Assembly: GCA_017481205.1 (NCBI GenBank)
Contig: JAFUPN010000014.1
Location: 17,500 to 81,499, forward strand
Length of the DNA: 64,000 bases
From: Clostridia bacterium
Lineage (GTDB): Bacteria; Bacillota; Clostridia; UMGS1810
Reading direction: 5' to 3'
The position numbers and the translations under genes were made by a program. How positions within the stretch are numbered: position 1 is the first letter of the stretch; each line of letters opens with the position of its first letter. Positions 1-56,898 of the stretch are shown here, one piece after another. A model generated the notes under the pieces. It ran no database searches, was not told the DNA's origin, and was given only the letters and a program-made list of their open reading frames with translations.

Positions 1-1595
1 GCCATTCGATTTGCAGAGGTGGTGTAAAAGCTCTTTCCGGCAAAAACTTCTTCCGGCACACCCTCGGAAGTTATCCCTCCGTCAAAAACAAGAGCGCATC
101 GGTCCGCATACTCCGCACAAAATTCTATATCATGGGAAACCATTACCACGGTTATCCCCTTTGCCCTGAGCTCATACAGTATATCTGCAAAAATCATCTT
201 AAAATATGCGTCCATACCCTTTGTGGGCTCGTCCAAGAGCAAAATCCCGGGCTCATGTAGCAAGACCTTGGCAAGAGCCGCCCTCTGCTGCTCGCCGCCG
301 GACAAATCATAGGGATGGCTGTCTAAAAACCCGTCTATGCGGCAAAGCGCTGCCATGGATTTTACTGCAATTTCCTTTTCTGATACCGAAAGCTTTTTGT
401 ATGAAAGTGCTTCCATAAGGTCAAAAAACACAGTCTTTTTTACAAACAATGTCTGCGGATTCTGCGGAAGAACCCCAAGGACGCCGCCATACAGATTGTC
501 AATCTCAGAGAGTCTGTGTCCCATCACAAGCACCTCTCCCCTGTACGGCTTATTAAGACCGCTTATAAGTGACAGTGCCGTGGTCTTGCCTGTGCCGTTG
601 CCGCCGACAATGGCATACAGCTCACCGGGATAAACACTGAGGCTGAGCCCTTTTACAACATCGGGAAGATTTTTTTCGTACCTGAACCATACATCCTTAA
701 CCTCAATAACCGGTGTTTCTGTATATTTTCTTTCTTCTCTTTTTTCTATAAGCTCGGGATAAAGCCTGTGGCTGCCGGCATATTCTTCAATAGCATTTCT
801 GCCCTCGCGCACTGTAAGGGGGCTTTTTTCATCCGGTGCCAGAGCTCCGAAAATGCGCATGGGAGCGGGCAGAGCATAATACATATCATGATTTTTAAGT
901 ATTTTGCCCGTTTCTGCCGGAGGGCAGTCGGCAATAATTCTGCCGCTGTCTACAACCACCACTCTGTCGGATATAGGAAAAGCATCTTCAAGACGGTGCT
1001 CAGTAAGAATAACGGTAGTACCCAGCTCACGATTGATTTTTTCAAGAGATTTCAAAAATTCCTGAGCCGCTATGGGGTCGAGCTGACTTGTGGGCTCATC
1101 CAGTATTAGGACCGACGGCTGCATTACCATAACAGAGGCAAGGCTCAGCAGTTGCTTCTGACCGCCGGAAAGCTCTGTAATCTTCTTGTGAAACCAGGTC
1201 TGTATGCCGAAAAACGATGCCATTTCCGCTACTCTTGCCCTTATCTCGGGAGTAGAATACCCTAGGCTCTCCAGACCGAAAGCAAGCTCATGCCACACCT
1301 TGTCCGTGACAATCTGATTGTCGGGATTTTGCTGCACAAAGCCAATTTCTGACGCCTGCTGCCTTGCATCTGCATCAGAAAGCGGTTTGCCGTTAAAGCA
1401 AATACTTCCGCTCAGTCTGCCGCAGGGTGCAAGAGAGGATTTGAGCAGTCTGAGCAAGGTTGTTTTTCCACAGCCGGATTTGCCGCACAGGGTTATAAAT
1501 TCCCCTTGATTAACAGTGATATTTATATCCGAAAGAGTATTCTCTTCTCTGCCGGGATATGCAAAATTCAGATTTTCGATTTTATAGCTTTCCAT
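1..1595 (-). CDS. ECF/ABC transporter ATPase with two fused ABC domains (EcfA-A' / YkoD-like); the 3' end runs off the window
   Basis: Absent from the ORF track because it leaves the window. My translation from the ATG at 1595 (minus) gives MESYKIENLNFAYPGREENTLSDINITVNQGEFITLCGKSGCGKTTLL, which contains a Walker A. A second Walker A (GGNGTGKTT) is encoded near 560-600. It overlaps the upstream EcfT gene by 28 nt. Confidence 0.85.
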   Translation of the reverse strand, partial: MESYKIENLNFAYPGREENTLSDINITVNQGEFITLCGKSGCGKTTLLRLLKSSLAPCGRLSGSICFNGKPLSDADARQQASEIGFVQQNPDNQIVTDKVWHELAFGLESLGYSTPEIRARVAEMASFFGIQTWFHKKITELSGGQKQLLSLASVMVMQPSVLILDEPTSQLDPIAAQEFLKSLEKINRELGTTVILTEHRLEDAFPISDRVVVVDSGRIIADCPPAETGKILKNHDMYYALPAPMRIFGALAPDEKSPLTVREGRNAIEEYAGSHRLYPELIEKREERKYTETPVIEVKDVWFRYEKNLPDVVKGLSLSVYPGELYAIVGGNGTGKTTALSLISGLNKPYRGEVLVMGHRLSEIDNLYGGVLGVLPQNPQTLFVKKTVFFDLMEALSYKKLSVSEKEIAVKSMAALCRIDGFLDSHPYDLSGGEQQRAALAKVLLHEPGILLLDEPTKGMDAYFKMIFADILYELRAKGITVVMVSHDIEFCAEYADRCALVFDGGITSEGVPEEVFAGKSFYTTSANRM

Positions 1596-2461
1596 ACTGC
1601 CGCCTCCCTTATTTCAATTATAACCGGCACTGCGCAAAGCACAAGATATGCCGCAAAAACACTTGCTCCGTACAACGAAAACAGCTCTCCCCTCATGGAC
1701 GGGAAATACCTGAAATATATACCTCCTGCAAGATTGCCGCAAAAAACATATATTCCCAGAAACAGTATAATCAAAAACACAAGCCCGTCCCGCTTGTCAA
1801 ATCTGAATATAGAAAAAGCTGTTCTTCCCGGCAGACCGTAGCCCCGGGATTTCATACTGTCGGCTGTGTCTATGGAGTTCTCTAACGCCCATGTTACCGT
1901 AACCGACAAAATGGAAAGCCCTTGCTTCGCTCTCTTTATGATACTACCCTGTGAAAAGTCCCTGCCCATACATCTCTGTGCATTGGCAACCGCCTTCAGC
2001 TGAGAGGCAAACCTCGGCACAAACCGCAGAGTCATTGACAAAATAAGCGAAAGCGCAGGTATGACTCTGCCGAAGAGATATATGAATTTGTCACTTGTCA
2101 TAACCGCATTATAGCATGAAAACCAGCATATAACCGTAACAAGCATAACCGCCGCCGCAATGCCGTATACAGCTGATTCCAGCGTCAGCGGATTTCCATC
2201 GGGCAGGTATCGGAGGATGGTTACCCCCTCATGGTTGAATACGGGGTTGACAAGTGCCGCCGCAAGCATCACAGGCAGCATATAAAGGATGTTTGTCTTA
2301 AGTGCTTTTTTGCCGTTTAAAAGCAAAGAGTATATAAAGCTGCACACAAATGATATGCAAAGGCACACCGGATGCATAAAAAACATAGAAAAGCCGATGA
2401 CAAACAGAAAATATATAAAATTTACAATCGGATGATATGTTTTGAAACCGTTCATACTCAT
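1568..2461 (-). CDS. ECF transporter transmembrane (T) component, EcfT/CbiQ family
   Basis: 297-aa polytopic membrane protein located between a DUF4430 gene and the fused ATPase. Its start overlaps the upstream stop in an ATGA arrangement. Confidence 0.75.
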   Translation of the reverse strand: MSMNGFKTYHPIVNFIYFLFVIGFSMFFMHPVCLCISFVCSFIYSLLLNGKKALKTNILYMLPVMLAAALVNPVFNHEGVTILRYLPDGNPLTLESAVYGIAAAVMLVTVICWFSCYNAVMTSDKFIYLFGRVIPALSLILSMTLRFVPRFASQLKAVANAQRCMGRDFSQGSIIKRAKQGLSILSVTVTWALENSIDTADSMKSRGYGLPGRTAFSIFRFDKRDGLVFLIILFLGIYVFCGNLAGGIYFRYFPSMRGELFSLYGASVFAAYLVLCAVPVIIEIREAAVWKAIKSKI

Positions 2462-3456
2462 TCTCCTGCTGCAGAATTGTGCCTGCCGATATCCATACCG
2501 AGCTCACATGTGTATATCCACTCAATCCTGTCTCCGTTCTTAAGCTGATACCGAGAACAGCCATAATTCGGAAACCATCCGTTGACCCGGTACATCCAGC
2601 CGGAGAGCTCTCCGCAGTCGTATTCATACAGATTGCCTATACCCTCGATATATGCACTGTTGTATATAGGTGTATTTACAAATTCCATATGAATTTTGTT
2701 TTTCTTCATTTCTCTAACAAGCACATTGAACACACTTTCGCCCTCATAGAAGGTAACAGTCTGCTCCTCATATATCACGCCGTTATCAGGCACAAGCTCC
2801 GTCTTTTCCCGGTCAAGCCGGGCAATATTGGCAAGGATTGTGTCACAGCGCACTGACAGCGTACAGGTGTATTTCCTATCCGATATAACGACATTATCAG
2901 GCTCTACAGGTATGGGTCTGCCCTCTGGCACAGGGGCTGTCATATACCTGTCTTTTCCTGTCTCTTCATCAAGCTGCATACCCTTGTTTTGAGAATAGTC
3001 TCTGTCTCCTGCTTCTGCATTATGGTAATAATTCTGCACCGTGCTATCTTCAGGAGCAGTTTTCTCTTCAGCGGTCAAAGGAGCCTCGACTGACCTCTGC
3101 GGTATGCTGTCTCGTGTCGCATCCCTGCCGGCTCCTCTGACAGGAATTTCTTCAACTGAATTTTCCGTGGATAAAGCTTCTCTGTCAGTATCGAATTTTT
3201 TCTTTGGGTCTGACGTGTTTTTTTCAGCCCCAGCCTTGCCGGAAATGCCTGCTTCTTTTGATTCACCCTCCGGCAAGTCCCCGGGCTCTGCCGCACCTTC
3301 AACAAGCTCCTTATCTGCAATATGTGTGACAGCAGTATCCTCTGTCTGCATATTCAATCCCCGGAGCCCGGGCGCGTCTCCGCCCCACCAGTATACAAAT
3401 ATCAAAACAAGGGCGATAACCGCACCGGCTATGATTTTATTCTTATGTTTTTTCAT
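2458..3456 (-). CDS. Membrane-anchored DUF4430 (transcobalamin-like C-terminal domain) protein
   Basis: N-terminal TM segment (IIAGAVIALVLIFVYWW), a low-complexity E/P/A linker, and a C-terminal domain ending GELSGWMYRVNGWFPNYGCSRYQLKNGDRIEWIYTCELGMDIG. The same motif occurs in the giant protein upstream. Confidence 0.75.
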   Translation of the reverse strand: MKKHKNKIIAGAVIALVLIFVYWWGGDAPGLRGLNMQTEDTAVTHIADKELVEGAAEPGDLPEGESKEAGISGKAGAEKNTSDPKKKFDTDREALSTENSVEEIPVRGAGRDATRDSIPQRSVEAPLTAEEKTAPEDSTVQNYYHNAEAGDRDYSQNKGMQLDEETGKDRYMTAPVPEGRPIPVEPDNVVISDRKYTCTLSVRCDTILANIARLDREKTELVPDNGVIYEEQTVTFYEGESVFNVLVREMKKNKIHMEFVNTPIYNSAYIEGIGNLYEYDCGELSGWMYRVNGWFPNYGCSRYQLKNGDRIEWIYTCELGMDIGRHNSAAGE

Positions 3457-3469: not shown

Positions 3470-5113
3470 CTACAAAAGCTCTGCCCTGCTCAGCATATTA
3501 AATACCATCTGAGCAATTTCTGCTCTGGTAACAGCCTCTTTCGGCTTGATTTCCATATTATCATCGGGCAGAATACCCTCGTCATAACAAAAAGCCAGTG
3601 AGCTTACCGCCCATGACTGAGCCTTTACATAGTCAAAAAATGCCGCCAAAATGTCTCTCGCCTCATAAATATCATATTCCGTATCCATTCCGCACAGCTT
3701 TGCAGCTCTCGCCACCATAACCGCCGCTTCCTCACGGGTGATTGTTCCGTGGGGATTAAATTCCGTATCGGAAACACCGTTTACTATTCCATAGGAATAA
3801 GCAGTATTCACATAATCAACAAACCAGTCCGAGACGGTCATATCCGAAAAAGCTTCGCCGTTTTTCACCGGAAGTCCAAGACCTTTCACAATAATCGTAG
3901 CAAACTCAGCTCTTGTCATGGTGCTGTCAGGCTCAAAGAAAGAATCAGCCTTGCCGTTTATAATCCCCCTTGATGACAGAGCCTCTACAGCGGATTGGTT
4001 GTCATGACCGCTGATATCGTCAAAGCTTTTGCCCGGGAATATAACATCCATTTTCTTGACATCTGGATTTTTGCCCATGAGCCCCACGGCAACACTGTCT
4101 GTCGGCTGAGATATTTTAACAGAGTCTGTTATGCGATAAAGGCTGCTCTGACCGCACAGCAGACGTTTTACCGCCACCAGTCCGTAAAAGCCCTGCTCTG
4201 TCGCCATCTGATCTGAGCCGTTGCCCTCAGTTGTATGCTTAAAACCGCAGTCCTTGTCATAATAGGTCAGCAAGCTGTCAAGCATAGTATTGCCGTTTTT
4301 TACAAAGCGAGGGTCGTCAAGGGATATTCCCAACTCACACAAAGCAACTATCATCTGCACGCAGCTTTCAGAATTTTCTGTATTGCGGCTTGAAAAGCCT
4401 CCATTTTCATTTTGCATTGCAGACATACAGGAAATGGCTTTTCCGGTTGCCGCCTTCACTCTTTCATCATCCTGATATTTGGCAAGAGCCTGCAGCACCA
4501 TGCCTGTTATATCCGGGTCAGAAGCCATATCATCGCCTTCTGCAGACCCGTTGCTGCCAAGCAGAGACCAGCCTCCGTCAGGGAGCTGACATTCTAAGAT
4601 ACGGTCAACATACATTTCTCTTGTCGCCTGTACCACGGCACCGGAATTATGTGGCATATCGTAATTACCGCTGTCCAGGGCAAGTAAAGCCCAAACAGGA
4701 CCGTTAATGCCCTGCCATATTGTTTTTTCATAATCACCAAGAGGTGTCAGGAGATTGAAGCCTGCCACATCTGCAGGATTTTTATCTATTGCGGTAATTG
4801 TTATTATAAGGCGGGAATACTCTGTATATTTTTTGTCATGCAGCACACCGCCGCAGTCTTTAACATATTTTTCTACGGTCTGATAATAATTTTCAAAATA
4901 TTCATCAGGAATATCAGCACCGCTTCGTGCAAGTCCTAAAACACACCATTCACCGCCGATAGAGCCAATCTGTGGATTCGGCACTGCTTCACACAGATAT
5001 TCTGCAATATCGCTTACTATAGTATTTACTGTACCATTATCTGCGGCAAGAGTCTGTACCGACAGGCTGAAAATCATTATCATGCATATAAAAATTGACA
5101 GTGTTTTTTTCAT
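3470..5113 (-). CDS. Secreted alpha/alpha-toroid (prenyltransferase/terpene-cyclase-like repeat) protein with three C-terminal SLH domains
   Basis: Start moved to MKKTLSIFICMIMIFSLSVQTLAA (signal peptide) with RBS AAAGGAG. Toroid-type repeats are present (PVWALLALDS, PDGGWSL, DITGMVLQALAKY, NENGGFS). Three SLH-like repeats include FDDISGHDNQSAVEALSSRGIINGK. Confidence 0.75.
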   Translation of the reverse strand: MKKTLSIFICMIMIFSLSVQTLAADNGTVNTIVSDIAEYLCEAVPNPQIGSIGGEWCVLGLARSGADIPDEYFENYYQTVEKYVKDCGGVLHDKKYTEYSRLIITITAIDKNPADVAGFNLLTPLGDYEKTIWQGINGPVWALLALDSGNYDMPHNSGAVVQATREMYVDRILECQLPDGGWSLLGSNGSAEGDDMASDPDITGMVLQALAKYQDDERVKAATGKAISCMSAMQNENGGFSSRNTENSESCVQMIVALCELGISLDDPRFVKNGNTMLDSLLTYYDKDCGFKHTTEGNGSDQMATEQGFYGLVAVKRLLCGQSSLYRITDSVKISQPTDSVAVGLMGKNPDVKKMDVIFPGKSFDDISGHDNQSAVEALSSRGIINGKADSFFEPDSTMTRAEFATIIVKGLGLPVKNGEAFSDMTVSDWFVDYVNTAYSYGIVNGVSDTEFNPHGTITREEAAVMVARAAKLCGMDTEYDIYEARDILAAFFDYVKAQSWAVSSLAFCYDEGILPDDNMEIKPKEAVTRAEIAQMVFNMLSRAELL

Positions 5114-5266
5114 TTTTTCAACTCCTTTATAAAACGGCAAAAGCGAGCAGTCTGATTTTAAGGTCAGACTGTCCGCCATAATGCCATAGCCAAAACAAAG
5201 TGATCCGAAATCTGATTTTTAGCGGCAGATTTTTGCTTTCGTTACATTAAAACATTCGGCAATTCC

Positions 5267-8200
5267 TTATTTTTCTATATTTCTGCAAAAGCGCATAAGA
5301 ATTGCCGCGGTCTGTGCGCGTGTTGCAGTTGTCTTGGGAGATATGCTTGTTTCGCTTATGCCTTTTATAAGCTCTGCAGCATTTGCCCATTTAACTGCGT
5401 CAAGTGCATAGATGCTGATTTCATTTACATCTGTAAAGCCTGCAAGCTCTGATGTCTTATGAGTATCGTAGCCCTTGAGCCTTGCATAACGATAAATAAC
5501 AGCCGCCATCTGCTCACGGGTTATATTATCATCCGGAGCAAATTCTGTTTCGTTTACGCCATTTACAACTCCGCTCTCTGCCGCCCACGCAACTGCTTCT
5601 GCATACCATTCTCCGTCAGATACATCAGCAAATAGGTGTGTTCTTTCCTTTTTTTCAGGATTTTCAAGACGGTATAGAACAGCCACAAGCATTGCTCTTG
5701 TCATGTTACTGTCCGGAGCAAATTCAGTGTTGGAAACGCCCTTGAACAGGTTATTTTCTACTGCATAGCCAATTGCCTCTTCGTACCATGAGCCTGCTTC
5801 AACATCCACAAACTCTGTCAGCGCTTCTGACTTTTCTGCTTCACCCTTAGTCCATTTAGCATAGAGGGTAAGGCTGCTTGTTACCTTTGTTGAAAAGTCA
5901 TATTCTGTTGTCAGAGCCTCATCTGTGTACCAGCCCGCAAAGGTATAGCCGTCTTTTTCCGGAGTAGCAGGCTTGGTTACTGTGCCCTTCTTGGCAATGC
6001 TCTGACTGCTGACTGTACTTCCGCCGTTTGTTTCAAACTTAACTGTACAGGTCGATGAGGAACCGACCGAGGATGAAGAACCTCTTGAGTTATCACCGAT
6101 ATCATCACCAAGCTCTCTCGTATAAAGCCATTCTACATAATCTCCTTCGGAGAGACTGTACAAGGATGCGGAATAATCGGAGAAATCTCCGTTTACACGG
6201 TACATCCATCCGCTTTCTGCACCTTCATCAAATTCAGCCAATCCTTCAATGGATTTTACATAGATACCGTAAGCGCTTTTTGTTACTTCAACATCCAATC
6301 CGGTTTTATTAAGAAGGTCGTATACTGTATGGCCCTCCTCCATTGAATAGGATGTTTTCTTAAGATATGTCTTCCCCTTAGGGTCGGCAACCCTGATATA
6401 AACAGTAATGCTATCATCAGCTTCGCCGCCCGAGCCGCCTGAACCGCCGGTACTTCCGGCAGTAACATTCATTTTGCAGACAGCCGGAACAATAGAACCG
6501 TCATCCGCATAAGCCATTACATAATAGCTACCGACACTTGCCGCATTTGAGAAGCTGATGCTGACCTGACCGTCGGAATTGGTGGTCAATGTTTTCTGTA
6601 TGCCGTTATTGTTGCCCAGGAACACAACATTTGCACCAGAATACGGGGAGAACACAGGTGCCCAGTTATTATTCTCATCATAACCGCTGTGATAGTTTAA
6701 TGTCAGTTTTACAGCTTCACCGGCAGTAACAGATACCTCGTTCTCAGCAAAATAAGAGTAAGCATCACTCCATCCTGCTGCATCAAAATAATTGAATGCA
6801 GTAAGATAATCGCCGTCTTTAACCTCATCTTCAAGACTCCAGCAGCCTGCATTATTTAGCCAATATCCCGCAGTTGCCGAAGCTCCTTGGGTGCCCTTGC
6901 CCCAAAGTATTGCCAGAGACAAGCCGTAGGAACCGTTATAGGAGCTGTAACCGGCAGCCGCACCTCCCTGATAATAAGTCTCATGAGCGCAATAAAGCGC
7001 TTCGTCTACAGTAAGAACACCGTTTTTATCAAAGTCTGTAACAGTTACAGGTGCCTGTGCCACATAACCTCCGCTCCTATCCTTAACAATAGTGCCGTCT
7101 GAAGCAATGGTTACATAAACAACAGAAGAAGCTTCACCCTTATTGCCTGAGTCAGAACCCTCCCCGGTGCTTGTATCATCATACTCAGCACCTGTTACAC
7201 CGAAATTCCAATAAGAAATATTTTCCTTATGAGCCTTTCTGTATGCGTCATAAGCCTGCATAACCTGAACTGTTGCCATCGGGTTGACTTTATCCCCATA
7301 GAAATAACCGTTTCCATTTGCATTGCGGTACTCATCAATAGCAGTTATTATGTTGTAATAAGTGTTGCCAAAACCATTATCGGAATCAGTAACATCTATT
7401 TTAAGAACCGATAATGCCAGAAGAACCTGAGCCGTGGTATTGGAGTTGTCTGCATAGGTATAGTTATCAGAAATTGCATTCTTAATGTAGTCAAGTGCCT
7501 TGCTTACAGATGCCGCCACTGCTTCATCATCTTGATACGGAGCCAATGCCTGCAGGCAGATTGCTGTCATGTCCACATCGCCGCCGGCGTTGTCGTACAA
7601 TCCAAATCCGCCGTTTGCAGCTTGGAATTTCAGCAGCTCTGTGATTATTTTATTTCTGCTCCATACAACTGTGTCAGGAATTGTTGTATCGGCTGCATCC
7701 AATGCAAGGAGAGCATATGCCAGCTCATTAGAACCGTCTGCCAGCTTCGTGCTGTCATAAATCAGCTCTGCCAGATTAACGCCGTCAATATCTGTGATAT
7801 CTTTCCCCATTGCGGTCAGCGCCAGAGCTGTACGTTCTGCATCTGTAGGCTTTACATCAGCAGTCCATGCACTGACTTCAGCAGCAACAGATTCATAATA
7901 TTCATCAAGTATATCCTTGTCAATAGCCTTTCCTGCACGGAGAAGTGCTGTAATATACCATTCAAAGCCATATGTGACGCCATCTCCCTCATGCAGCCCG
8001 GTAAGCTGCTGCTGAAGATAATCGGCAGATGACGCAATACCTCCGCTTATTATTTTATAAACATCCGGAGCTTCCTCTGCTTCGCCGTTCACAGTTACGG
8101 TAAAGGTTACCGGCTGTGCCCCTCCTGTTGTATCGATAGGGGTTCCGGTTATGGTTACTGTACCTGCCGATAAAGCACGGATTGTATATTCGCTGCTGAG

Positions 8201-11041
8201 GAAATAAGAACCGTCATCAGGAGCGCCTGTATCACGTTTCCACGCACCGCTGCCTCTTGATATTGATACAACACCGTCCGTGCTGAAACTCCAGCTCATT
8301 CCGGTTTCACTGACCTCATGACCGTCTGTAAGAGTTCCTTCAAAAATCAACCCTGCTGAAGCTATTTCTCCAACAGACATAGTAATGTTGCTATTTCCAA
8401 CCGTAACATTTTTCAACGGATTTTTATAAACATAAGTAACCTCAGATGTTCCTGTTACTATGTTTCCGTTATCATTTATCTCTGCTGTATAGGTTACAGC
8501 TCCTGCCTTGTACGGAACATATCCGTAAATCATACTTGTTACATATTCGGCAACTGATGAATCGCTACTTGTTATGGTGTAAGAATGAGCATAGCTTGCA
8601 TTTGCAGGGGTGACCGCCACATTTGCATAATCAGGCAAAAAGTCCTCTCCGCTTGAACTGTTGCCGTTTCTTCCGTGAAGCTCTGCAGTTCCTGAAATAC
8701 CGGGTTTAACTGACTGTACAGGTACATATTCTGAAGTCAGTTCGACACTTGCTGTAAGGGCGCTGTTGCTCTTGCCTGTAACAGTCATCGTTGCGCTGCC
8801 GGGCTTGCGGAAGCTGAATGTACTGCTGCCTTCGCTGCGCTTTACAATACCGTCCGGGTCAGACAGCACAAATTCAAAGTCACCTTCAGAAACAGTCTGA
8901 TAGGATGACTCGCCTTCATGCAATGCTTTTATCAGAATACGCATATCCTCCGAGCCGGTAACCGTCGCCTTACCGTCTATAATCTCCACGCCATTTTCAG
9001 TATCTTCATATTCTGCAAGATACAGCCTGATAGTTTCTATTTCATTTGAGCAAATTATTACCTTTGTGCAGGCTATTACCTCTGCACTGCTATCTGCTTT
9101 TACCAAGGTTGCCGTTACAACCAGTATGCCTTCTTTTTCCACACTAAGATAAGGATATTCGCTACCTATAGATGCAACACCGGACGGAAACTGCTGCGAT
9201 GTGCTCCATTCAATTCTCTCTCCCTCCTGCAGTTCATATTCCGGCAGAGAGAAAAAACCGGCTATACCGTTTAATGCTGTATTTATGTCAATTTTCAGCT
9301 CCTGATTTTCAATCAGGGTTGTTGTCTGTGTTCGTTCTGCCGTAAATGCTATGGCAGTTTTATTTTCCGGCAGTTCAATGCTGCCTTCAGATTCAGGAGT
9401 ATAATCAAGATTTTCTCCAAAATATGGATATCCGTTACTATTTTGACCCCAGGATATTCCGTATGTGCCTTTGTTTGCATTAAGAGCAGAAACAAAATCA
9501 AGACTCTTCATCGCCGATGCGTTCAGTGCTTTTACATCGCCGATTGTAGTAAGCTCGGTTAAGTCAATCGGCTGTTTCAAATCGCTGCGCCAATATACAT
9601 TTTGCAGCGTACCTGTATAGACTGTACCGTCCGTTGTTTCCGTCTGCTCAATAATTGAACCGTCAGCCGCCTCGCTGACAGAATAACAATTAGAAATAAT
9701 ACCTCCGTTCAGGCGCTTGGCAAATCCGACTGCGCTGCCACCTGTGATTTCAGTATAGCAGTTAATGATTGCGCCCTGCACCTCCTGAGCACAGGCGCCG
9801 TAGTCTGCACTTGATTTTAAAGCTCCGGCAAAATGAACATTCTGCACCACTCCGTTGCTTCCAATGCTTTTGAATAATCCGGTATAATCATTATTAAAGG
9901 TGATTGTATTTCCACCGCCGTCAAAAGCACCGTTAAAGGTATCAAAACTCATATACCATCCGTCAAACGAAATATCGTTATCAAGAATATAATATGTATC
10001 TGCATTTCCCGCTCCGATTGCTTCAAGCTCGGACTGGGTTGTTATATGCCTGATTGTGCCGTAATCCGACTGAGCAACCGACTCAAATGGCTTTTTCTTT
10101 TCAAGAGCGTTGATTGCCGCTTCCAGTGCGCTGAGTGCAGAATTAACCTCTGCCTGTGTTGCATCAGTAAAATCAAAAACAGCTCTTGCTTCGGTCAACG
10201 CTTCGCTTAAAGTCAACCAGGTATCTGCAGTATATTTATCTTCACTTAGTTCTTCCGCAGCAGTAATTTTTGCTTCAAGCAAAATCTTATTTACAGCAGT
10301 ATCTCCCGTGTCTTCCGTCAAAAACGGGAATCCTCCGTTTGCATTTTCGGTATCCTGTGCCCAGATATATCCGGTAGGCTGAATATCCGTGTTAAGGGCA
10401 GTCACAGCATCAATGCCTGTCATATCGGATTTTTTGGAGACATTTGTTTGTGTTACTTTGCTACCTCCCATACCCACAGCACTGTAGCCTACAGTATACA
10501 AGCTGTTTGAAATTTCTCCTCCGGAGGCAGTTCCTACCAATCCGTCAGCAAACATTGCGCTGTTTGTTCCTGCATAATAGCTGTTAAGAATATTACCTCC
10601 GGAAAGCGTGCCTACAAGACCGCCAATTTCATCCCAGCCGGAGGTTGTCATATCTGCAAGTGAATAACAGTTCTGTATTGTACCGGACAGACATAGTGCC
10701 ATGCTGCCTGAAACGCCGGACAGAGTTAATGTATCAGCTGTTAATACACCCAGATTATGAATCGTGCCTGTGACACTATTTGCCAACGGTTTATCCGCTA
10801 AAGTAATAGTATGACCCTTACCGTCAAGCGTACCTGCCAGTATTTCAATCTGCTGTCCGCTTGTAAGTACAATATCGGCAGTGAGCTCATAAATACTGCC
10901 TTCGCTGATTTCTGCAGGAAAGTCTGATGATGAGGAAATCTGTACCGAAGATGATTCATTATCTGCCAGCGCCGCTGCAGGAATCATACTTATAATCAGA
11001 ATTACTGATAAAAGTAAGCTTAAAATTCTTTTTGATTTCAT
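5267..11041 (-). CDS. Giant (1924 aa) secreted, S-layer-anchored multidomain protein with a transcobalamin-like toroid plus DUF4430 modules
   Basis: Signal peptide MKSKRILSLLLSVILIISMIPAAALA. Two similar N-terminal modules (TLDGKGHTITL... / FDGGGNTITF...). A helical FIVAR-like segment and Ig-like repeats. Toroid repeats (FQAANGGFGL, VDMTAICLQALAPYQDDE). Two DUF4430-like domains (GYWLNNAGCW...GDYLTAFNY and SGWMYRVNGDF...GDYVEWLYTRELGDDIG). One Listeria-Bacteroides repeat (GYTFAGWYTDEALTTEYDF). Three C-terminal SLH domains. Confidence 0.85.
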   Translation of the reverse strand: MKSKRILSLLLSVILIISMIPAAALADNESSSVQISSSSDFPAEISEGSIYELTADIVLTSGQQIEILAGTLDGKGHTITLADKPLANSVTGTIHNLGVLTADTLTLSGVSGSMALCLSGTIQNCYSLADMTTSGWDEIGGLVGTLSGGNILNSYYAGTNSAMFADGLVGTASGGEISNSLYTVGYSAVGMGGSKVTQTNVSKKSDMTGIDAVTALNTDIQPTGYIWAQDTENANGGFPFLTEDTGDTAVNKILLEAKITAAEELSEDKYTADTWLTLSEALTEARAVFDFTDATQAEVNSALSALEAAINALEKKKPFESVAQSDYGTIRHITTQSELEAIGAGNADTYYILDNDISFDGWYMSFDTFNGAFDGGGNTITFNNDYTGLFKSIGSNGVVQNVHFAGALKSSADYGACAQEVQGAIINCYTEITGGSAVGFAKRLNGGIISNCYSVSEAADGSIIEQTETTDGTVYTGTLQNVYWRSDLKQPIDLTELTTIGDVKALNASAMKSLDFVSALNANKGTYGISWGQNSNGYPYFGENLDYTPESEGSIELPENKTAIAFTAERTQTTTLIENQELKIDINTALNGIAGFFSLPEYELQEGERIEWSTSQQFPSGVASIGSEYPYLSVEKEGILVVTATLVKADSSAEVIACTKVIICSNEIETIRLYLAEYEDTENGVEIIDGKATVTGSEDMRILIKALHEGESSYQTVSEGDFEFVLSDPDGIVKRSEGSSTFSFRKPGSATMTVTGKSNSALTASVELTSEYVPVQSVKPGISGTAELHGRNGNSSSGEDFLPDYANVAVTPANASYAHSYTITSSDSSVAEYVTSMIYGYVPYKAGAVTYTAEINDNGNIVTGTSEVTYVYKNPLKNVTVGNSNITMSVGEIASAGLIFEGTLTDGHEVSETGMSWSFSTDGVVSISRGSGAWKRDTGAPDDGSYFLSSEYTIRALSAGTVTITGTPIDTTGGAQPVTFTVTVNGEAEEAPDVYKIISGGIASSADYLQQQLTGLHEGDGVTYGFEWYITALLRAGKAIDKDILDEYYESVAAEVSAWTADVKPTDAERTALALTAMGKDITDIDGVNLAELIYDSTKLADGSNELAYALLALDAADTTIPDTVVWSRNKIITELLKFQAANGGFGLYDNAGGDVDMTAICLQALAPYQDDEAVAASVSKALDYIKNAISDNYTYADNSNTTAQVLLALSVLKIDVTDSDNGFGNTYYNIITAIDEYRNANGNGYFYGDKVNPMATVQVMQAYDAYRKAHKENISYWNFGVTGAEYDDTSTGEGSDSGNKGEASSVVYVTIASDGTIVKDRSGGYVAQAPVTVTDFDKNGVLTVDEALYCAHETYYQGGAAAGYSSYNGSYGLSLAILWGKGTQGASATAGYWLNNAGCWSLEDEVKDGDYLTAFNYFDAAGWSDAYSYFAENEVSVTAGEAVKLTLNYHSGYDENNNWAPVFSPYSGANVVFLGNNNGIQKTLTTNSDGQVSISFSNAASVGSYYVMAYADDGSIVPAVCKMNVTAGSTGGSGGSGGEADDSITVYIRVADPKGKTYLKKTSYSMEEGHTVYDLLNKTGLDVEVTKSAYGIYVKSIEGLAEFDEGAESGWMYRVNGDFSDYSASLYSLSEGDYVEWLYTRELGDDIGDNSRGSSSSVGSSSTCTVKFETNGGSTVSSQSIAKKGTVTKPATPEKDGYTFAGWYTDEALTTEYDFSTKVTSSLTLYAKWTKGEAEKSEALTEFVDVEAGSWYEEAIGYAVENNLFKGVSNTEFAPDSNMTRAMLVAVLYRLENPEKKERTHLFADVSDGEWYAEAVAWAAESGVVNGVNETEFAPDDNITREQMAAVIYRYARLKGYDTHKTSELAGFTDVNEISIYALDAVKWANAAELIKGISETSISPKTTATRAQTAAILMRFCRNIEK

Positions 11042-13879: not shown

Positions 13880-16095
13880 TTACATAAGAGCTTCTGCCTG
13901 GCGTATAAAGCCTTCCTGTTCTTCAGGCGCAATGTTATTCCAAAGCACATTCCAGCCGCACACTCTTATCTGAAGGTCCTCGTATTTTTCAGGATACTTC
14001 TGAGCATCGCGGAGTGTGGATGCATCAAACACATTTATATGTATGGCATGACCACCTCTGTTCATAAAAGTACGAACTAGCGCATAAAGGGCTTCAAGTC
14101 CATCTTCACCTTTTACTGCCGTGGGATGAATTGCAAAATCCAACGCCGCATCACAATGAATCTTTGTAGCATCAATCTTAGTCGCAGACAGTATTGCACC
14201 TGTCACTCCCTCCCGGCTCATGCCAAGAGATGCAGAAAGATTTTTTGAAAGCTCCTGACCGCGCAATCTGCCATCCGCCGATGCCGCCGTACACAATCCC
14301 TGAGTATAAGACATTCTTGCCACATGGGTACTCGTTCCCCAATTACCATTACGTTCACTTGCGTTCTTTTTATCCTTGAGATAATCTACAACAAAGTCAA
14401 CAATCTCCACAGCAAAGGTATCAGGAATATCCTTATTGTTACCGTAATGGTCGCAATTACGGAGTATTCTCTGTCTTATATGCTCATAGCCTTCGTAATT
14501 TACATCAAGGATATGTCTGAGCTCATCTAAAGTTAATTCCTTTTTGTCAAACACAAGTTCTTTTATGGCAATCAGCGAATCGGCAGCATTTGCCAGAAAT
14601 CCTATTTCCACGGTAGTGTTGTTAGAGAAAGCTCCACCGTTCAAAGCATCGCGCTTCTTTTCAAGACACGTTGGAAATGTCGCTGACAGCATAGACTGTG
14701 GATTTATATACGAAAGATAGTTTTCAAAGCTGTTGTTTGTAGCTATGATTGTATCTATAAGATGTGTAAGCTGTAATTTATAAGCATTATAAAAATCATC
14801 AAATGTATCAAACTGCAGAGGAGTTTTCAGCCCTGACTCTTCTCTTGTATACGCATCGAGCCCTCCATAAAGTGCATATTCCAGCGGTTTCATAAGATTG
14901 GTGTAGTTCATACCCGTACCAAGAGACCCCTGGCACGAATACTCATAGCAGCCGGTTACGTGACACAGTCTAGCCTGGTCATAGGTTGCACCTCTTTTCA
15001 TCAAAGCTTTAATCATGGTTTCTTCACAGACAAAAACTATACTGTTATGTCCACGTCTTATCATATCAAGCGCACGCAATACAAAATCCTTGGGAGTGTT
15101 GTTTGCAATCTTTATCTGTATTTTTGGGTTATAAATGCCCATTTTGTCGTATACATCCAGAAGCAAATGTGAAAGCTCATTCACTTCGCTTTCGCCGTTT
15201 GCCTTTGTTCCGGCAAGATACATAGGCTGCCCCCAATAATTGCCGATTGCTGTAAACTGCATATAAAAATATGCTATATCCTCACGGATTTCCTGTTCTG
15301 TTATGCCGTTTTCAAGGTCCTTTAAGTAATACGGATACAATAATCTGTCTAAATTTGACAGAGAACGAGCCTGCAAGCCTTCAATATGTTCGCTGATAAT
15401 AAAGTACAAGTAAATTATCATAAGCACATCATAAAAGGTTTCGGGCGCTCCGTTTTTAAGAGTCTCAAGTGATTTTCTCATTTTAGGAGCTTCACAGATT
15501 TCTATAAGCCGCCCAATAAAGTTAAGTATAGCTCTGTATGTTATATCCATGCCCTCAAAAAGAGCATTTTCCTTTTTTGTAAGACCGCCATTCTTTTCGT
15601 GATTTTCCCAAGCTTTATTGCTTCCCTTAAAATGCCGGTAAATCCAAGAGGAATAACTCTATCCCACACCGGCACACTATGGTCATAGTCGGGCCATATG
15701 GTAGAAATACCCTTGTTCTCAAGCTCGTCTCTTTTAGCTCCCACCTCCGGAATGATTTCATAAAAAACTTCTTTTTTCCATGAGTCTATAAGAGTTTTAT
15801 TTATGGGACGGTCAACAGAACAAATAGCAGGAAATCTGTCTCTCTTATCACAGCTGATTCTGGTATTTTCAAGAACAAACCTAACAGCATGTGCTTTTCT
15901 GACGGGATGCGGAAGATTTTCATACTTTTTATCATTTTCCCATATTCCGTCTATAATATCTTTTGGGCTTAAACCCGTGTTTTCGTCAAAAATCTCTTCG
16001 TGACAGACAAACCTTGCGAAAGTATCAAAGGGCTTTGCAGAATCGTGATACTTATTTTTTATATAATCATAATCCTCATTTTTAATATACTCCAT
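13880..16095 (-). pseudogene. Glycyl radical enzyme (PFL2/dehydratase-like) with an interrupted reading frame (ORFs 15541..16104 and 13880..15550)
   Basis: The C-terminal ORF carries the Cys loop VTGCYEYS and the glycyl radical motif IRVCGWNV. The N-terminal 187-aa ORF ends in out-of-frame residues. The downstream frame stays open upstream of its ATG and reads ...AWENHEKNGGLTKKENALFEGMDITY. This indicates a 1-nt frameshift or a sequencing error. Confidence 0.75.
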
Positions 16096-18644: not shown

Positions 18645-19250
18645 TTATAATGCCAAATCAACGTTCCCAGAGCTATCAGGATGCATCCTATCAATGATTT
18701 TGTCGAAGCACATACATTCCTTGGAATGTGCATTTATAACTCCCATAGACTGCAGGAAGGAATAAATAATTGTTGAGCCAACAAAGGTCATTCCGCGCTT
18801 TTTCAAATCCTTTGATATGGCATCTGACAGCGGCGATGTAGTTCTCACTGTAAATTCCTCCATAACAACCTTATTGTCAGTAAAAGACCAGATGTAATTG
18901 CTGAAAGAACCAAATTCCTCTTGAATTTCCTTAAATACTATACTGTTATTGACAGCGGCCTTTATTTTAAGCCTGTTGCGGATGATTCCCGGATTATTCA
19001 TCAACGCTTGCTTCTTTTCATCATCATACTTGATAATTATGTCAATATCAAAATTATCAAAAGCTGCTCTGAAGTTTTCGCGCTTATTTAATACGCACTC
19101 CCAGGACAAGCCTGCCTGAAAGCACTCTAAAATAAGAAGCTCATACAGCTTTTTATCATCATATAAAGGCTGTCCCCATTCTTCGTCGTGATATTTTACA
19201 TAGGTTTCATTATTTAAGTTTAGCCAACTGCACCTTATCTTCTTTTCCAT
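18645..19250 (-). CDS. tag: DNA-3-methyladenine glycosylase I
   Basis: YHDEEWGQPLYDDKKLYELLILECFQAGLSWECVLNKRENFRAAFDNFD is typical of Tag. Confidence 0.85.
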   Translation of the reverse strand: MEKKIRCSWLNLNNETYVKYHDEEWGQPLYDDKKLYELLILECFQAGLSWECVLNKRENFRAAFDNFDIDIIIKYDDEKKQALMNNPGIIRNRLKIKAAVNNSIVFKEIQEEFGSFSNYIWSFTDNKVVMEEFTVRTTSPLSDAISKDLKKRGMTFVGSTIIYSFLQSMGVINAHSKECMCFDKIIDRMHPDSSGNVDLAL

Positions 19251-19460
19251 TCTTTACTCCTCAATCTTTCCAATGTATGCAACAGTATGGTGATATGTCT
19301 TTATAATCTTATTTTACCATATTCTATTGACAAATGCAATATTCTCCTTTAGCTATTGCGTTTTATCATATGACATTTGGATTAACACCAATTCGACAAA
19401 ATAACATATTATATAACAGTGGCTCATAATTTTTAAATACAATGAGAAAGAGGGAATTTT

Positions 19461-22400
19461 ATGAAACCAATATGCAGCTGCATAATGCAGAATAATACGA
19501 GAACCTATAACATTGAAGCAATATCTTTGCCGATTGTTTATAATAAATTTGGAGACCACGATATCAATGGATTGCTGTATGTGCTTTGTGAGGATTCCGA
19601 ACGCATTCAGAAAAAGGCATGGGAGAATTTTAACAAACCAATACCGCAGCCTTACGAAGAGGTTCGTCCCTTGGTAATCCGTGCAAACTTAGGAGACAAG
19701 ATATGTATAAATTTTCATAACAGACTAAACAGAAGAGCATCCATACATGTTCAGGGGCTCAAATACGATATTGATAAGTCAGACGGAGCAAACGTGGGAT
19801 TCAACCCCGATACTACCACAGATAACAGAATCACTTATACCTGGTATGCCGACCATGAAGGCGTATTCTTGTTTTCTGATTTGGCAGACCCCCGAAGCGA
19901 CGAAGAAGGCACAAATGTCCACGGGCTTTTCGGTGCAATTATTGTAGAAGCGCCCGGCTCGGAATGGTTTGACCCGGTTACTGGAAAACCGATTACAAGC
20001 GGACTTTTTGCAGATATTTACCACCCGGTAAAATCAGCCTTCCGTGAATATGCCGTGTTTTTTCACGACGAGCTGGAAATTTTGAACAAAGACGGTCAGC
20101 CTCCCGCAGACCCGCACACGGGACTTCCAAACGGCACTACCGCAATCAGCTATAGGTCAGAGCCTATGCGGAACAGACCGCCTCTCATCCATGACCACGA
20201 AGGCGGTGTAACCGACGAGGACATTTCTATGAGCTCATGGTCCTATGGAGACCCTGCTCCGCCAATATTGAGAGCGTATGTGGGAGACCCGTCCAAAATC
20301 CGTCTTATTCACGGCGGTGTGAAGGAGACTCATGTGTTCCATCTGCACAATCATCAGTGGAGGCTGGAGCCCGATGACCCCAAATCAACAATTATAGATT
20401 CAATTTCAATCAGCCCACAGGAATGTTATACCTTGGATATACTTCACGGAGCAGGAAGCCTAAACGGAATGATTGGTGATGCAATATTCCACTGTCATCT
20501 CTATCCTCATTTTCATGAAGGAATGTGGACCTTATGGCGTGTTTTTGACCGTCTTGAGGACGGACGCGGAGTTTATCCCGACGGAACGTCTATTGAAGCA
20601 CTGTGTCCACTTAAGGACAGACCCCTGCCGCCTGAAAAAGATGAGCTTCACCCGGGCTATCCAAATTTTATTAACGGAACCTTCGGTCAGCGTCCTCTTC
20701 TGCCACCATTTGGGATTTTGACAGCAGAGGGCGAAAACAAGATTGAGCCGACACAGCTTGTAGAAGCAAATTTCGCACAGAATTTTGCACCCGGAGCATT
20801 GTATACCAAAACCTGTCCGTGCAAAACGGCTAAAGATATAAAGGTATTCGACATTGCCGCTGTACAATCAAAGATTATCTATAACCGTTACGGATGGCAC
20901 GACCCTCAGGGACGCTTTTTTGTCCTGAAAGAAGAGCTTGAAAAGTATGGAACATTAGAAAATTATTTAAAAGATGTAGAATGCGGAAATATCATACCGG
21001 AACCACTTGTAATTCGAGCAAATGCAGGAGATTGTATTGAAATCAGGTTTACAAATCTTCTGCCTGAATTTATTGAGGGCAATGAATTTCAGCTGAAAAC
21101 CCTTACGGACATTGTAGGATATCATATTCATCTGGTTAAGTTTGACACTATCGTATCAGACGGTGCCGCAAATGGCTGGAACAATATAGCCGGTGCACGA
21201 AAATACGAAACAGTGATTGAACGCTTCTTTGCTAACGAAGAGCTTAACACAGTATTTTTCCATGACCACCTGTTTGCCAATATGCATCAACAGCACGGTA
21301 TGTTCGGAGCGCTTATAATTGAGCCTGCCGATGCCGTTTTTTACGACCCTAAAACCGGATGTGAGTCAAAAAGCGGAACCCAAGCGGTTATCCGCCGTGC
21401 AAACGGAGATGCCTACCGCGAGTTTGCACTGTTTGTTCATGATTTTGCACTGCTTTTCGATAAAAAGGGAAAGCCCCTTAATCCACCGGAGCACCCCGGC
21501 TCAGATGATGACCCTGGCGTAATGGGTATAAATTATCGGTCAGAACCAATGCGTGAGCGGCTCAAAATCAAAAATGACCCGTCACACATTTTCAGCTCAT
21601 GCGTCTACGGCGACCCTGCAACGCCAATTCTGGAAACCTATCCGGACGAACCCTTTGTTATCCGATTACTTGACGGAGCACACGAGGAACAGCACGCATT
21701 TAATATCCGGGGAATGTCATGGAGAAAAGAGATTACCGACCCAGTATCGCCTATTGTGCAGGAACAGACGCTTGGTATATCGGAGGCTTTTAATATTCGT
21801 ATAGATGAGGGATATTGCGCAGGAGATTATCTGTATTATTTCGGAGGAATTGACGATTTATGGCTTGGTCTTTGGGGAATTATAAGGGCACACAAATGTA
21901 TTCAAAAGGATTTGCTGCCGTTATGCAGAGAGCAGAAGCTTTTACCTCCCAATCCGTCAGAACCGCCTGAGGGTGCAACTATCCGCAGATTCTCTGTTGC
22001 GGCAATTCAAAAGGATTTGGTGTATAACAAATATGGAGACCATGACCCTGACGGACTTTTATTTGTTCCTCTTGAACATGTCGGGGATGTTATAAAGGGA
22101 CGCAAAAAGCCGATACCGCTTATACTGAGAGCAAATGCCGGCGATTGGATTGAAATAACGCTTTACAATATGTTTGATATAAACCGTCCGATTGAATACT
22201 TCGACTATCCGTCAGTTCCTTTGGACTATCCGCACAAACCTTCAGATAGAGTTTCGCTGAATCCGCAGTTTCTGCAGTATGACCCAATACATTCATCAGG
22301 CATTAACGTGGGATATAACGAAACTGAACAAACCGCAGGACCGGGCGAAAAAATACGCTATTTGTGGTATGCAGACAAGGAGTACGGCGGCTGCATTATA

Positions 22401-23126
22401 AACTCCTTCGGAGATGTAAGAAATCACCGGTATCACGGTCTGTTTGGTGCAATAATTATAGAGCCTGTACAGGCGAAGTGCTTTGACGGACTAAAAGAAA
22501 CCTCAACTCATTACGGAGAACAGGCTGTTATAGCTGCGCCAGGCAAGGAAACTTTCAGAGAGTTCGTATTGTTTGCGCAAAACGGTATTCGTCTGTTGGA
22601 TAAAAATAATGTGCTTATAAAAACAACCGAGCAAAATTCTGAAGAAGGAGGACACGGTGCACCGGACCATGAGGATACGGGAGAAAAAGGATATAATTAC
22701 CGTTCCGAGCGATTTTTCAACAGATTGAAGCGTGATTCGCGAATATATAAGATATTTAGCTCCAAAGAGCACGGAGACCCTTCTACACCGCTGTTTAAGG
22801 CATATGAAGGAGAAAGAATCATCTTCCGCTACCTGATGCCTGCCGACAAGCCGAGAAATATAAGCTTTGCTCTTCACGGGCATCAGTGGATGGCTCAGCC
22901 TGAAGACCCGTTTTCAAGAGTTATCCCCGTTCAGGGAGCAGTCAGTGTCGGCGGAAGCTATATGATTGAACCAAAAAACGGAGCCGGAGCTCCGGGAGAT
23001 TATTTATATCGTTCAGGCTCACTGCGTTGGGATGTGGAATCGGGAATGTGGGGCATATTAAGAATTATGAAGCGATCAATAAAAGAGCGCTGCAAGGATG
23101 CCTGCCGGCGTATATTTTCCAGATAA
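19461..23126 (+). CDS. Leaderless 1221-aa multicopper-oxidase-like protein built from three tandem homologous repeats (about six cupredoxin domains)
   Basis: One full HCHxxxHxxxGM motif (HCHLYPHFHEGM, nt 20490-20525). HxH motifs FHLHNHQW, GYHIHLVKFD, FFHDHLF and ALHGHQW. Repeat anchors at about aa 16, 461 and 842 (VYNKFGDHD / IYNRYGWHD / VYNKYGDHD; PLVIRANLGD / PLVIRANAGD / PLILRANAGD; HGLFGAIIVE / HGMFGALIIE / HGLFGAIIIE). RBS AGAGGGA. No signal or TAT peptide. Confidence 0.7.
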   Translation: MKPICSCIMQNNTRTYNIEAISLPIVYNKFGDHDINGLLYVLCEDSERIQKKAWENFNKPIPQPYEEVRPLVIRANLGDKICINFHNRLNRRASIHVQGLKYDIDKSDGANVGFNPDTTTDNRITYTWYADHEGVFLFSDLADPRSDEEGTNVHGLFGAIIVEAPGSEWFDPVTGKPITSGLFADIYHPVKSAFREYAVFFHDELEILNKDGQPPADPHTGLPNGTTAISYRSEPMRNRPPLIHDHEGGVTDEDISMSSWSYGDPAPPILRAYVGDPSKIRLIHGGVKETHVFHLHNHQWRLEPDDPKSTIIDSISISPQECYTLDILHGAGSLNGMIGDAIFHCHLYPHFHEGMWTLWRVFDRLEDGRGVYPDGTSIEALCPLKDRPLPPEKDELHPGYPNFINGTFGQRPLLPPFGILTAEGENKIEPTQLVEANFAQNFAPGALYTKTCPCKTAKDIKVFDIAAVQSKIIYNRYGWHDPQGRFFVLKEELEKYGTLENYLKDVECGNIIPEPLVIRANAGDCIEIRFTNLLPEFIEGNEFQLKTLTDIVGYHIHLVKFDTIVSDGAANGWNNIAGARKYETVIERFFANEELNTVFFHDHLFANMHQQHGMFGALIIEPADAVFYDPKTGCESKSGTQAVIRRANGDAYREFALFVHDFALLFDKKGKPLNPPEHPGSDDDPGVMGINYRSEPMRERLKIKNDPSHIFSSCVYGDPATPILETYPDEPFVIRLLDGAHEEQHAFNIRGMSWRKEITDPVSPIVQEQTLGISEAFNIRIDEGYCAGDYLYYFGGIDDLWLGLWGIIRAHKCIQKDLLPLCREQKLLPPNPSEPPEGATIRRFSVAAIQKDLVYNKYGDHDPDGLLFVPLEHVGDVIKGRKKPIPLILRANAGDWIEITLYNMFDINRPIEYFDYPSVPLDYPHKPSDRVSLNPQFLQYDPIHSSGINVGYNETEQTAGPGEKIRYLWYADKEYGGCIINSFGDVRNHRYHGLFGAIIIEPVQAKCFDGLKETSTHYGEQAVIAAPGKETFREFVLFAQNGIRLLDKNNVLIKTTEQNSEEGGHGAPDHEDTGEKGYNYRSERFFNRLKRDSRIYKIFSSKEHGDPSTPLFKAYEGERIIFRYLMPADKPRNISFALHGHQWMAQPEDPFSRVIPVQGAVSVGGSYMIEPKNGAGAPGDYLYRSGSLRWDVESGMWGILRIMKRSIKERCKDACRRIFSR

Positions 23127-23198: not shown

Positions 23199-23247
23199 AA
23201 AAAGGTCAGCGAAAAGCAGTTGTTTTGATGCTTTTGCTGACCTTTTA
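23199..23247 (+). terminator. Rho-independent terminator after the MCO-like gene
   Basis: AAAAGGTCAGCGAAAAGC ... GCTTTTGCTGACCTTTT long hairpin with a T-tail. Confidence 0.7.
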
Positions 23248-23552: not shown

Positions 23553-23936
23553 TCAGCTTTTCATCAATTCATCCGTCAATCGCATAATTTCGGGGGCAAT
23601 TTTCTCCCGCTCTTTTTTTATAATCTTGCTGTATATGGGGTAAGCAAGAGCTATGATACCTATTCCGATAATTCCGATTATAATTCCGGGAATAAACCAC
23701 TTGTCCATCCATACCATACAGCAACACATTCCGACTCCAAACACAATTGCACCGATAAAGCCTGCAATGAGTGATAACGAAGTAGCTTTTTGATAAACAC
23801 TGCTGTCAAGCTTTCTTAGAAGTGTCATTTTGTCCTCTTCCGGTGGCAAGTATTTTTTTCGTATGCTTTCTATTTCTGTTTTTTGTTTTGCAGAATAAGT
23901 ATAATTAAATACCTCTCCGTGATTTTTATTTTCCAT
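23553..23936 (-). CDS. Small 2-TM membrane protein (127 aa), paralog of 26948..27322
   Basis: Soluble helical N-terminus, two TM segments containing PGIIIGIIGIGIIALAYPIY, and a C-terminal helix ...MRLTDELMKS. The architecture and PGIIIGIIG motif match the 124-aa protein. Confidence 0.6.
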   Translation of the reverse strand: MENKNHGEVFNYTYSAKQKTEIESIRKKYLPPEEDKMTLLRKLDSSVYQKATSLSLIAGFIGAIVFGVGMCCCMVWMDKWFIPGIIIGIIGIGIIALAYPIYSKIIKKEREKIAPEIMRLTDELMKS

Positions 23937-41985: not shown

Positions 41986-42047
41986 TAAATAAACCAGCAA
42001 TGGAGATTATTCGATTAAAAATATATTAAAATACGGAGATGATAGCA

Positions 42048-56887: not shown

Positions 56888-56898
56888 CGGAGAGGTAT

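Follow-up and report, generated by a model that had tools for sequence, protein, structure and literature searches.

Multicopper oxidases of several described kinds bear on the protein reported here. In SLAC-type homotrimers, the trinuclear copper cluster is shared by neighboring units, one contributing its second domain and the next its first, and these enzymes are typically exported through the twin-arginine translocation (TAT) pathway. Ceruloplasmin carries type 1 (T1) copper sites in domains 2, 4 and 6 and a trinuclear cluster at the interface of domains 1 and 6. CotA of Bacillus subtilis is a multicopper oxidase that lacks a signal peptide, is made late in the mother cell and is assembled into the outer spore coat. 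MnxG of Bacillus sp. PL-12 is a spore-associated Mn(II)/Mn(III) oxidase known as part of the MnxE3F3G complex (PDB 9bxa). Bacillus MnxG is the sole characterized multicopper oxidase that requires accessory proteins and the sole one that performs a two-electron metal oxidation, and mnxEFG is the minimal gene set for its activity and overexpression (PMC5622069). Here we describe a homologue of MnxG encoded by a stretch of 64,000 nucleotides (nt) from a Clostridia bacterium (GenBank assembly GCA_017481205.1, contig JAFUPN010000014.1, positions 17,500 to 81,499 of the forward strand), hereafter called the window and numbered from its first letter. Homology places this protein of 1221 amino acids (aa) in a clostridial sister clade of Bacillus MnxG. 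With a probability of roughly 65%, we propose that it is a catalytically intact MnxG-like oxidase that is expressed by sigma-K late in the mother cell, is placed on the spore and works without MnxE and MnxF.

The coding sequence (19461..23126, +) opens with ATG and specifies a six-cupredoxin-domain multicopper oxidase of the length and position given in an earlier note on this DNA. That note had also divided the translation into three homologous segments sharing a set of anchor strings, all of which we found in the protein. When compared by BLASTP, the three segments (aa 16-460, 461-841 and 842-1221) proved mutually homologous over 366-391 aligned columns per pair, with identities of 31.4% over 366 aa for repeats 1 and 2 (E 6e-46), 31.5% for repeats 1 and 3 (E 3e-41) and 31.6% for repeats 2 and 3 (E 1e-50). 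The triplication is therefore real and far beyond chance. Repeat 1 (19506..20840, +) comprises domains 1-2, the second of which carries the predicted T1 ligands and half of the trinuclear ligands. Repeat 2 (20841..21983, +) comprises domains 3-4, with the other half of the trinuclear set assigned to domain 3, and repeat 3 (21984..23123, +) comprises domains 5-6, lacks an HCH motif and retains a residual H1139-G-H1141.

The chain aligned over nearly its full length with MnxG of PDB 9bxa_A (1227 aa), residues 14-1206 against 3-1207, with E=0 and 1065 bits, and its identity to 78 Bacillaceae MnxG proteins ranged from 41.6 to 46.1% (~44%). The six domains of the two proteins are collinear (1221 vs 1227 aa). 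This match supports the six-domain multicopper oxidase proposed in the earlier note, and two of the Pfam families suggested there as a check were recovered above their cut-offs (PF07732, Cu-oxidase_3, 61.7 bits vs 21; PF07731, Cu-oxidase_2, 30.2 vs 20.4). Homology thus establishes a six-cupredoxin-domain, pseudo-trimeric architecture. The earlier interpretation was essentially right, and the protein is a variant of the MnxG family rather than a new kind of enzyme.

The AlphaFold2 model, built from a shallow alignment of 24 sequences that were all at least 71% identical, was poor (mean predicted local distance difference test score, pLDDT, 55.8; predicted template modeling score, pTM, 0.50), and it served for Foldseek ranking and not for ligand geometry. 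Six-domain cupredoxin proteins led the Foldseek list: the top match of this weak model was 9bxa_A (E 1.8e-92, template modeling score 0.66), followed by factors V/VIII and ceruloplasmin and then by three-domain laccases including CotA. The fold is already settled by a solved structure at 44% identity.

The best NCBIfam match was NF041487, named 'manganese-oxidizing multicopper oxidase MnxG', with 342.6 bits against a cut-off of 3100. However, a Bacillus-type MnxG from Mesobacillus (locus L084), which is ~96% identical over 798 aa to the MnxG chain of 9bxa, scored only 278 bits and was also below the cut-off. NF041487 was rejected as a membership test since a Bacillus-type MnxG fails it too, which indicates that this model of 1894 positions describes a different, longer protein type sharing the MnxG name.

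The copper ligands were located in an alignment of the window protein with its homologues, 74 clostridial and 78 from Bacillaceae. None of the 12 canonical T1 and trinuclear ligand positions varies across the 152 sequences. The T1 site would be formed by H291, C345, H350 and M355, and the trinuclear cluster by H294, H296, H344 and H346 of domain 2 together with H555, H557, H601 and H603 of domain 3. The first group of domain-2 ligands falls in H291-V-F-H294-L-H296-N-H298 (20331..20354, +), where the T1 His is followed by a trinuclear HxH pair within HLHNH (aa 294-298) and where all four His are invariant in both clades. The second falls in H344-C345-H346-LYP-H350-FHEG-M355 (HCHLYPHFHEGM, aa 344-355; 20490..20525, +), which supplies the T1 Cys, His and axial Met and the other trinuclear HxH pair of this domain, again invariant in both clades. 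Domain 3 contributes the pairs H555-I-H557 (21123..21131, +) and H601-D-H603 (21261..21269, +), each invariant in the 152 sequences. Domains 1, 4 and 5 are devoid of HxH pairs, and domain 6 keeps only HGH at aa 1139-1141. The uneven retention of ligand motifs described in the earlier note, with a single HCH in repeat 1, HIH and HDH in repeat 2 and HGH in repeat 3, was thus reproduced, and it points to a single T1 site and a single O2-reducing trinuclear cluster at the junction of domains 2 and 3. Invariance of these ligands across 152 sequences at 44% identity leads us to expect that they are under catalytic selection. The 9bxa_A entry, titled as an H340A mutant, has Ala in the column of H350, where the natural Mesobacillus sequence has His; this fits a functionally targeted residue, which is the T1 His by the canonical HCHxxxH pattern.

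The positions of the T1 and trinuclear ligands are identical in the window protein and Bacillus MnxG. Unlike Bacillus MnxG, the clostridial clade carries a conserved H352-E353 pair (20514-20519) between the T1 His and Met, at which Bacillaceae have G/A/V/E, and a conserved H154 (19920-19922), which is N or Q in Bacillaceae. In domain 6, the HTFHLHGH motif of Bacillaceae is reduced to xSFxxHGH in the clostridial clade, with loss of the first two His. We also observed that H96 in domain 1 (19746-19748) and H1139/H1141 in domain 6 (22875-22883) are conserved in both clades, even though neither has a copper cluster of the ceruloplasmin type between domains 1 and 6. Together, H352-E353, H154, H96 and H1139/H1141 could contribute to an additional site for a metal or for substrate.

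The other described oxidases share parts of this arrangement. Repeat 1 aligns to two-domain small laccases of the SLAC type (~280-340 aa, E ~1e-12), and as in SLAC-type trimers the predicted cluster ligands are split between two successive units (domain 2 of repeat 1 and domain 3 of repeat 2). In contrast to these enzymes, the three units are fused in a single 1221-aa chain, one of the three possible inter-unit copper centers survives, and no export signal is present. Six cupredoxin domains in one chain, derived from a triplicated two-domain unit, are also found in ceruloplasmin and factors V/VIII, although identity to these proteins is only 10-13% and, unlike ceruloplasmin, the clostridial protein has a single predicted T1 site (domain 2) with cluster ligands in domains 2 and 3. 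CotA, which appears among the fold matches, is likewise a multicopper oxidase without a signal peptide, but it consists of three domains (~510 aa) of different origin, shares ~12% identity with the window protein and has organic substrates.

The largest difference from the Bacillus systems concerns the accessory subunits. Profile hidden Markov models (HMMs) of MnxE and MnxF were built from Bacillaceae loci, where mnxE and mnxF immediately precede mnxG in 78-79 of 80 cases, and the source proteins were checked against chains B and E of 9bxa (E 2e-63 and 6e-65). With a best E of 0.25, these profiles matched none of the 22,458 open reading frames (ORFs) searched in the window and in 80 clostridial loci, so that the absence of adjacent mnxE/F partners remarked on in the earlier note extends to the whole 64 kb and to the relatives. 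At least in the vicinity of the gene, the clostridial clade therefore lacks the MnxE3F3 hexamer. Likewise, mnxD was not found in the window or in the 80 clostridial loci.

Instead of these partners, clostridial loci frequently encode a protein of ~300 aa with a DUF2935 domain (PF11155, 233 bits) that matches PDB 3D19, a 'conserved metalloprotein' of Bacillus cereus, with E 2.5e-33. Among the 74 clostridial loci with usable upstream sequence, the DUF2935 gene adjoins the oxidase gene in 42 (~57%): it lies directly upstream on the same strand in 32, downstream in 7 and in divergent orientation in 3, and it is not adjacent in the remaining 32. Examples are found at 29-931 (+) of locus L034 and at 2288-3199 (-) of locus L162. 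DUF2935 is nearby in only 3 of the 80 Bacillaceae loci. It was not found anywhere in the 64-kb window, and a relative 82% identical to the window protein has a divergently adjacent DUF2935 gene. Our literature search found no relevant paper on DUF2935.

In the window, the oxidase gene forms a transcription unit of its own. The tag-like gene upstream (18645-19250) is divergent from it and the gene downstream (23553-23936) is convergent with it, in agreement with the single unit claimed in the earlier note, which also names a good ribosome-binding site and an own terminator. A ribosome-binding site, GAGGG (19450..19454, +), can be read directly from the sequence 6 nt 5' of the ATG. Folding detected an intrinsic terminator hairpin followed by UUUU (23200..23246, +; -24.1 kcal/mol, z = -6.4) that a simple terminator scan had overlooked; 0 of 200 shuffles folded as well. 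Homologue alignments begin at residue 4-5, which makes M1 a likelier start than M9. By inspection, the N-terminus MKPICSCIMQNNTRTYNIEAISLPIVYNKFGDHD has neither a hydrophobic stretch nor the RR motif of TAT substrates, so the protein is leaderless as described. Bacillus MnxG is likewise without an N-terminal signal, its chain opening directly at the first strand.

Sigma-K promoters of Clostridioides difficile combine AC at -35 with a -10 box resembling CATATAAT, whereas sigma-E promoters have ATA at -35, and the sigma-K regulon of this species consists mostly of proteins of the coat and exosporium, catalases and a peroxiredoxin among them (PMC3789822). With start codons anchored by homology, we took the 120 nt upstream of each family unit, from the DUF2935 gene where it comes first, and scanned them for the sigma-K consensus AC, 16-17 nt, CATAnnnTA. 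The consensus was present in 31 of 77 units of this phylogenetically related family, compared with 6 of 893 control ORFs of the same loci (Fisher p = 2e-31), while dinucleotide-preserving shuffles of the same regions gave a mean of 0.41 and a maximum of 2. When the last base was relaxed, 41 of the 77 units (53%) matched. Furthermore, positions outside the search pattern are also conserved (C after AC, TA after CATA and A at +10), and the motif precedes the first gene of the unit, whether that gene encodes DUF2935 or the oxidase, at a distance from the start codon of 40-44 nt in DUF2935-first units and 55-60 nt in oxidase-first units. Sigma-A, sigma-E and sigma-F/G patterns were not enriched upstream of the family units, with sigma-A-like matches in 0 of 77. 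The same consensus occurs in at least 18 of 66 Bacillaceae mnxDEFG operons, mostly ~60 nt upstream of mnxD. At the level of sequence motifs, a sigma-K-type promoter upstream of the unit is a further likeness to Bacillus MnxG.

The putative sigma-K-type promoter of the window (19387..19413, +) ends 47 nt before the ATG and reads ACC-aattcgacaaaataa-CATATTATA. Its predicted -35 AC (19387-19388) lies within aACACC (19384-19389) and is followed by a 16-nt spacer and the -10 box CATATTATA (19405-19413). It is the sole full consensus match before a long ORF in the 64-kb window, and the homology-anchored analysis argues that it is a real element with CATATTATA as its -10 box. A sigma-E reading made by eye (ACATATT, 14 nt, CATAATTT) was rejected, as it has 2 matches in the window against 0.9 expected and is not conserved in relatives. 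A full sigma-K-like motif on the opposite strand (45467-45493, -) overlaps the start of the second of two glycyl-radical enzyme genes described below and has probably arisen by chance.

A search of 5.8 billion proteins at E <= 1e-10 returned at least 2988 homologues. The best 120 of these were 71-88% identical to the window protein and, where named, came from Oscillospiraceae, Acutalibacteraceae, Ruminiclostridium, Evtepia, Bianquea, Faecousia and 'Clostridia bacterium'; they were always annotated as 'multicopper oxidase domain-containing protein' or 'copper oxidase'. Relatives are encoded in 398 stretches of a species-representative genome collection, and the clostridial family extends to hundreds of Lachnospiraceae and Oscillospiraceae genomes. 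Cultured carriers include Blautia hominis, Faecalicatena fissicatena, Anaerostipes faecalis, Velocimicrobium porci, Diplocloster species, Acetivibrio ethanolgignens and a Pseudoflavonifractor species. Identities of 66-88% across two families of Clostridia imply selection. The wider MnxG-like superfamily comprises 837 clusters at 50% identity (E <= 1e-30), and the clusters neighboring that of the window protein derive from a Clostridium metagenome-assembled genome (MAG; 62%), a Bacillota MAG (53%) and Anaerosporobacter (45%), for the last of which one source names the protein 'manganese oxidase'.

Two further observations concern this superfamily. Three clusters of MnxG-like proteins, ~42% identical to the window protein, were deposited under the fungus Basidiobolus ranarum (P0145, P0301 and P0302) and could reflect either horizontal transfer or bacterial contamination of the assembly. 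Two separate mnxG loci per genome were observed in Mesobacillus foraminis (L092, L097) and Bacillus pinisoli (L123, L157). Our literature search found no paper that pairs MnxG with Lachnospiraceae, and the only papers it returned on MnxG together with Clostridia or anaerobic spore-formers were sediment-community surveys.

Unlike the carriers of Bacillus MnxG, the clostridial hosts are strict anaerobes, and the window has the gene content of such an organism. The earlier note had spoken of an apparent anaerobe, which agrees with two glycyl-radical enzymes with PFL-like and Gly_radical domains (13880-15550 and 43460-45484, both -), with a flavodiiron-like protein with ODP/metallo-beta-lactamase and flavodoxin domains (42039-43202, +), and with relatives that are all from Lachnospiraceae, Oscillospiraceae and other Clostridia. 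Flavodiiron-type proteins are typical O2- or NO-reducing defense enzymes of anaerobes. Sporulation is represented by ytfJ/gerW (58908-59345, +; TIGR02874, 146.5 bits vs a cut-off of 116.3; Pfam Spore_YtfJ), which is part of a cluster with a YtfI-like DUF2953 gene and a D-Ala-D-Ala carboxypeptidase gene (58313-60528, +) located downstream of scpA and scpB (56803-58309). The window also encodes a 1924-aa surface protein with FIVAR, DUF4430, Listeria-Bacteroides repeat and three SLH domains (5267-11041, -) and, adjacent to it, a 569-aa SLH protein with a weak squalene-hopene-cyclase C-terminal fold match (3470-5179, -). The host is likely an anaerobic endospore-forming member of the Clostridia.

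These observations fit a spore-borne MnxG-like oxidase that would operate as follows. The gene would be transcribed as a single cistron by sigma-K RNA polymerase in the mother cell during late sporulation, as its promoter suggests, and expression in the mother cell would make an export signal unnecessary. MnxG and CotA suggest by analogy that the protein may be deposited in the outer spore layers. Substrate electrons would enter at the T1 copper of domain 2 (H291, C345, H350, M355) and pass over the H344-C345-H346 bridge to the trinuclear cluster, where O2 would be reduced to water, the other four domains being structural vestiges left from an ancestral trimer of two-domain oxidases. The enzyme may be idle in the gut of a strict anaerobe and become active only once the spore meets air; there it would consume O2 and oxidize a metal ion, for which homology points first to Mn(II), or another surface substrate. 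It would function without MnxE3F3 and, in most relatives but not in the window, would be paired genetically with the helical DUF2935 metalloprotein. Of the two roles envisaged in the earlier note, that of a spore-coat or exosporium oxidase gains independent support from the conserved sigma-K-type promoter and from ytfJ/gerW in the window.

Mn(II) as the substrate is our best guess by homology and the least certain part of this mechanism; a CotA-like organic substrate or another metal is possible. Several points weigh against the proposed role. The absence of MnxE and MnxF makes the transfer of Mn(II) oxidase function uncertain, and Mn(II) is further opposed by the altered residues next to the T1 site (H352/E353), by which the two clades differ, and by the different partner, DUF2935. 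The HxxHxH motif of domain 6 in Bacillaceae is reduced to HGH. With a poor AlphaFold2 model, the ligand geometry is carried over from homologues. The promoter is called from a sequence motif, its strict form occurs in only ~40% of units, and the 77 loci are phylogenetically related, so that they do not count as independent events, although their flanking sequence cannot otherwise be aligned. Finally, Acetivibrio ethanolgignens and Faecalicatena fissicatena are classically described as non-sporulating.

As an alternative, the protein would be a CotA-like laccase on the spore, acting on phenolic or protein-tyrosine substrates for pigment formation or coat cross-linking without Mn oxidation. MnxE and MnxF, on which the Mn oxidase activity of Bacillus MnxG depends (PMC5622069), are missing, H352 and E353 differ between the clades, repeat 1 resembles two-domain laccases and CotA-type laccases are among the fold matches. 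However, the closest characterized relative by far is MnxG, at 44% identity over the full length vs ~12% for CotA, and the clade-specific His-Glu pair beside the T1 His may suit a metal-cation site no less than a phenol site. We therefore regard a laccase of this kind as unlikely.

The second role considered in the earlier note, an O2- or metal-detoxifying enzyme, would place the protein in the cytoplasm of vegetative cells, as an oxidase unrelated to spores that serves to remove O2 or to detoxify Cu(I) or Fe(II). The lack of a signal peptide and the presence of the flavodiiron-like O2-defense gene in the window of an anaerobic host are in its favor. Yet the conserved upstream element is of the sigma-K type, sigma-A-like promoters are not enriched, and Bacillus MnxG, which also lacks an N-terminal signal, is nevertheless localized to the exosporium according to a work cited in PMC5622069. 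A vegetative role is accordingly not favored, and we consider it improbable. That the protein is a non-catalytic structural coat protein on a cupredoxin scaffold, as the loss of copper ligands from four of six domains and the presence of factors V/VIII among the fold matches might suggest, is very hard to reconcile with a full T1 and trinuclear set that is invariant in 152 sequences spanning 44% identity.

For the spore-borne MnxG-like oxidase, the features for which our literature search found no description are the lack of MnxE and MnxF, the frequent pairing with DUF2935 and a conserved sigma-K promoter in obligate anaerobes. A large and conserved sister clade without MnxE and MnxF constitutes a natural experiment on the role of these subunits, and it may provide an enzyme of one chain that is simpler to study mechanistically or to put to biotechnological use. 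The DUF2935 family has a solved structure (PDB 3D19), and its linkage to MnxG-like oxidases gives a testable context for its function.

Beyond this locus, we tentatively advance the view that strictly anaerobic gut commensals of the Lachnospiraceae and Oscillospiraceae may coat their spores with an O2-dependent oxidase of the MnxG type that is free of MnxE and MnxF and usually partnered by DUF2935 from the same sigma-K promoter. Such an enzyme would be silent in the gut and activated by air, and it would aid spore survival and transmission from host to host. If this is true, air-exposed spores would mineralize Mn, scavenge O2 or oxidize substrates at their surface. That hundreds of gut species living as obligate anaerobes carry the gene of an O2-requiring enzyme downstream of a late-sporulation promoter suggests that their spore surface has a component not yet studied, and such surfaces are important both for survival in air and for transmission of the gut microbiota.

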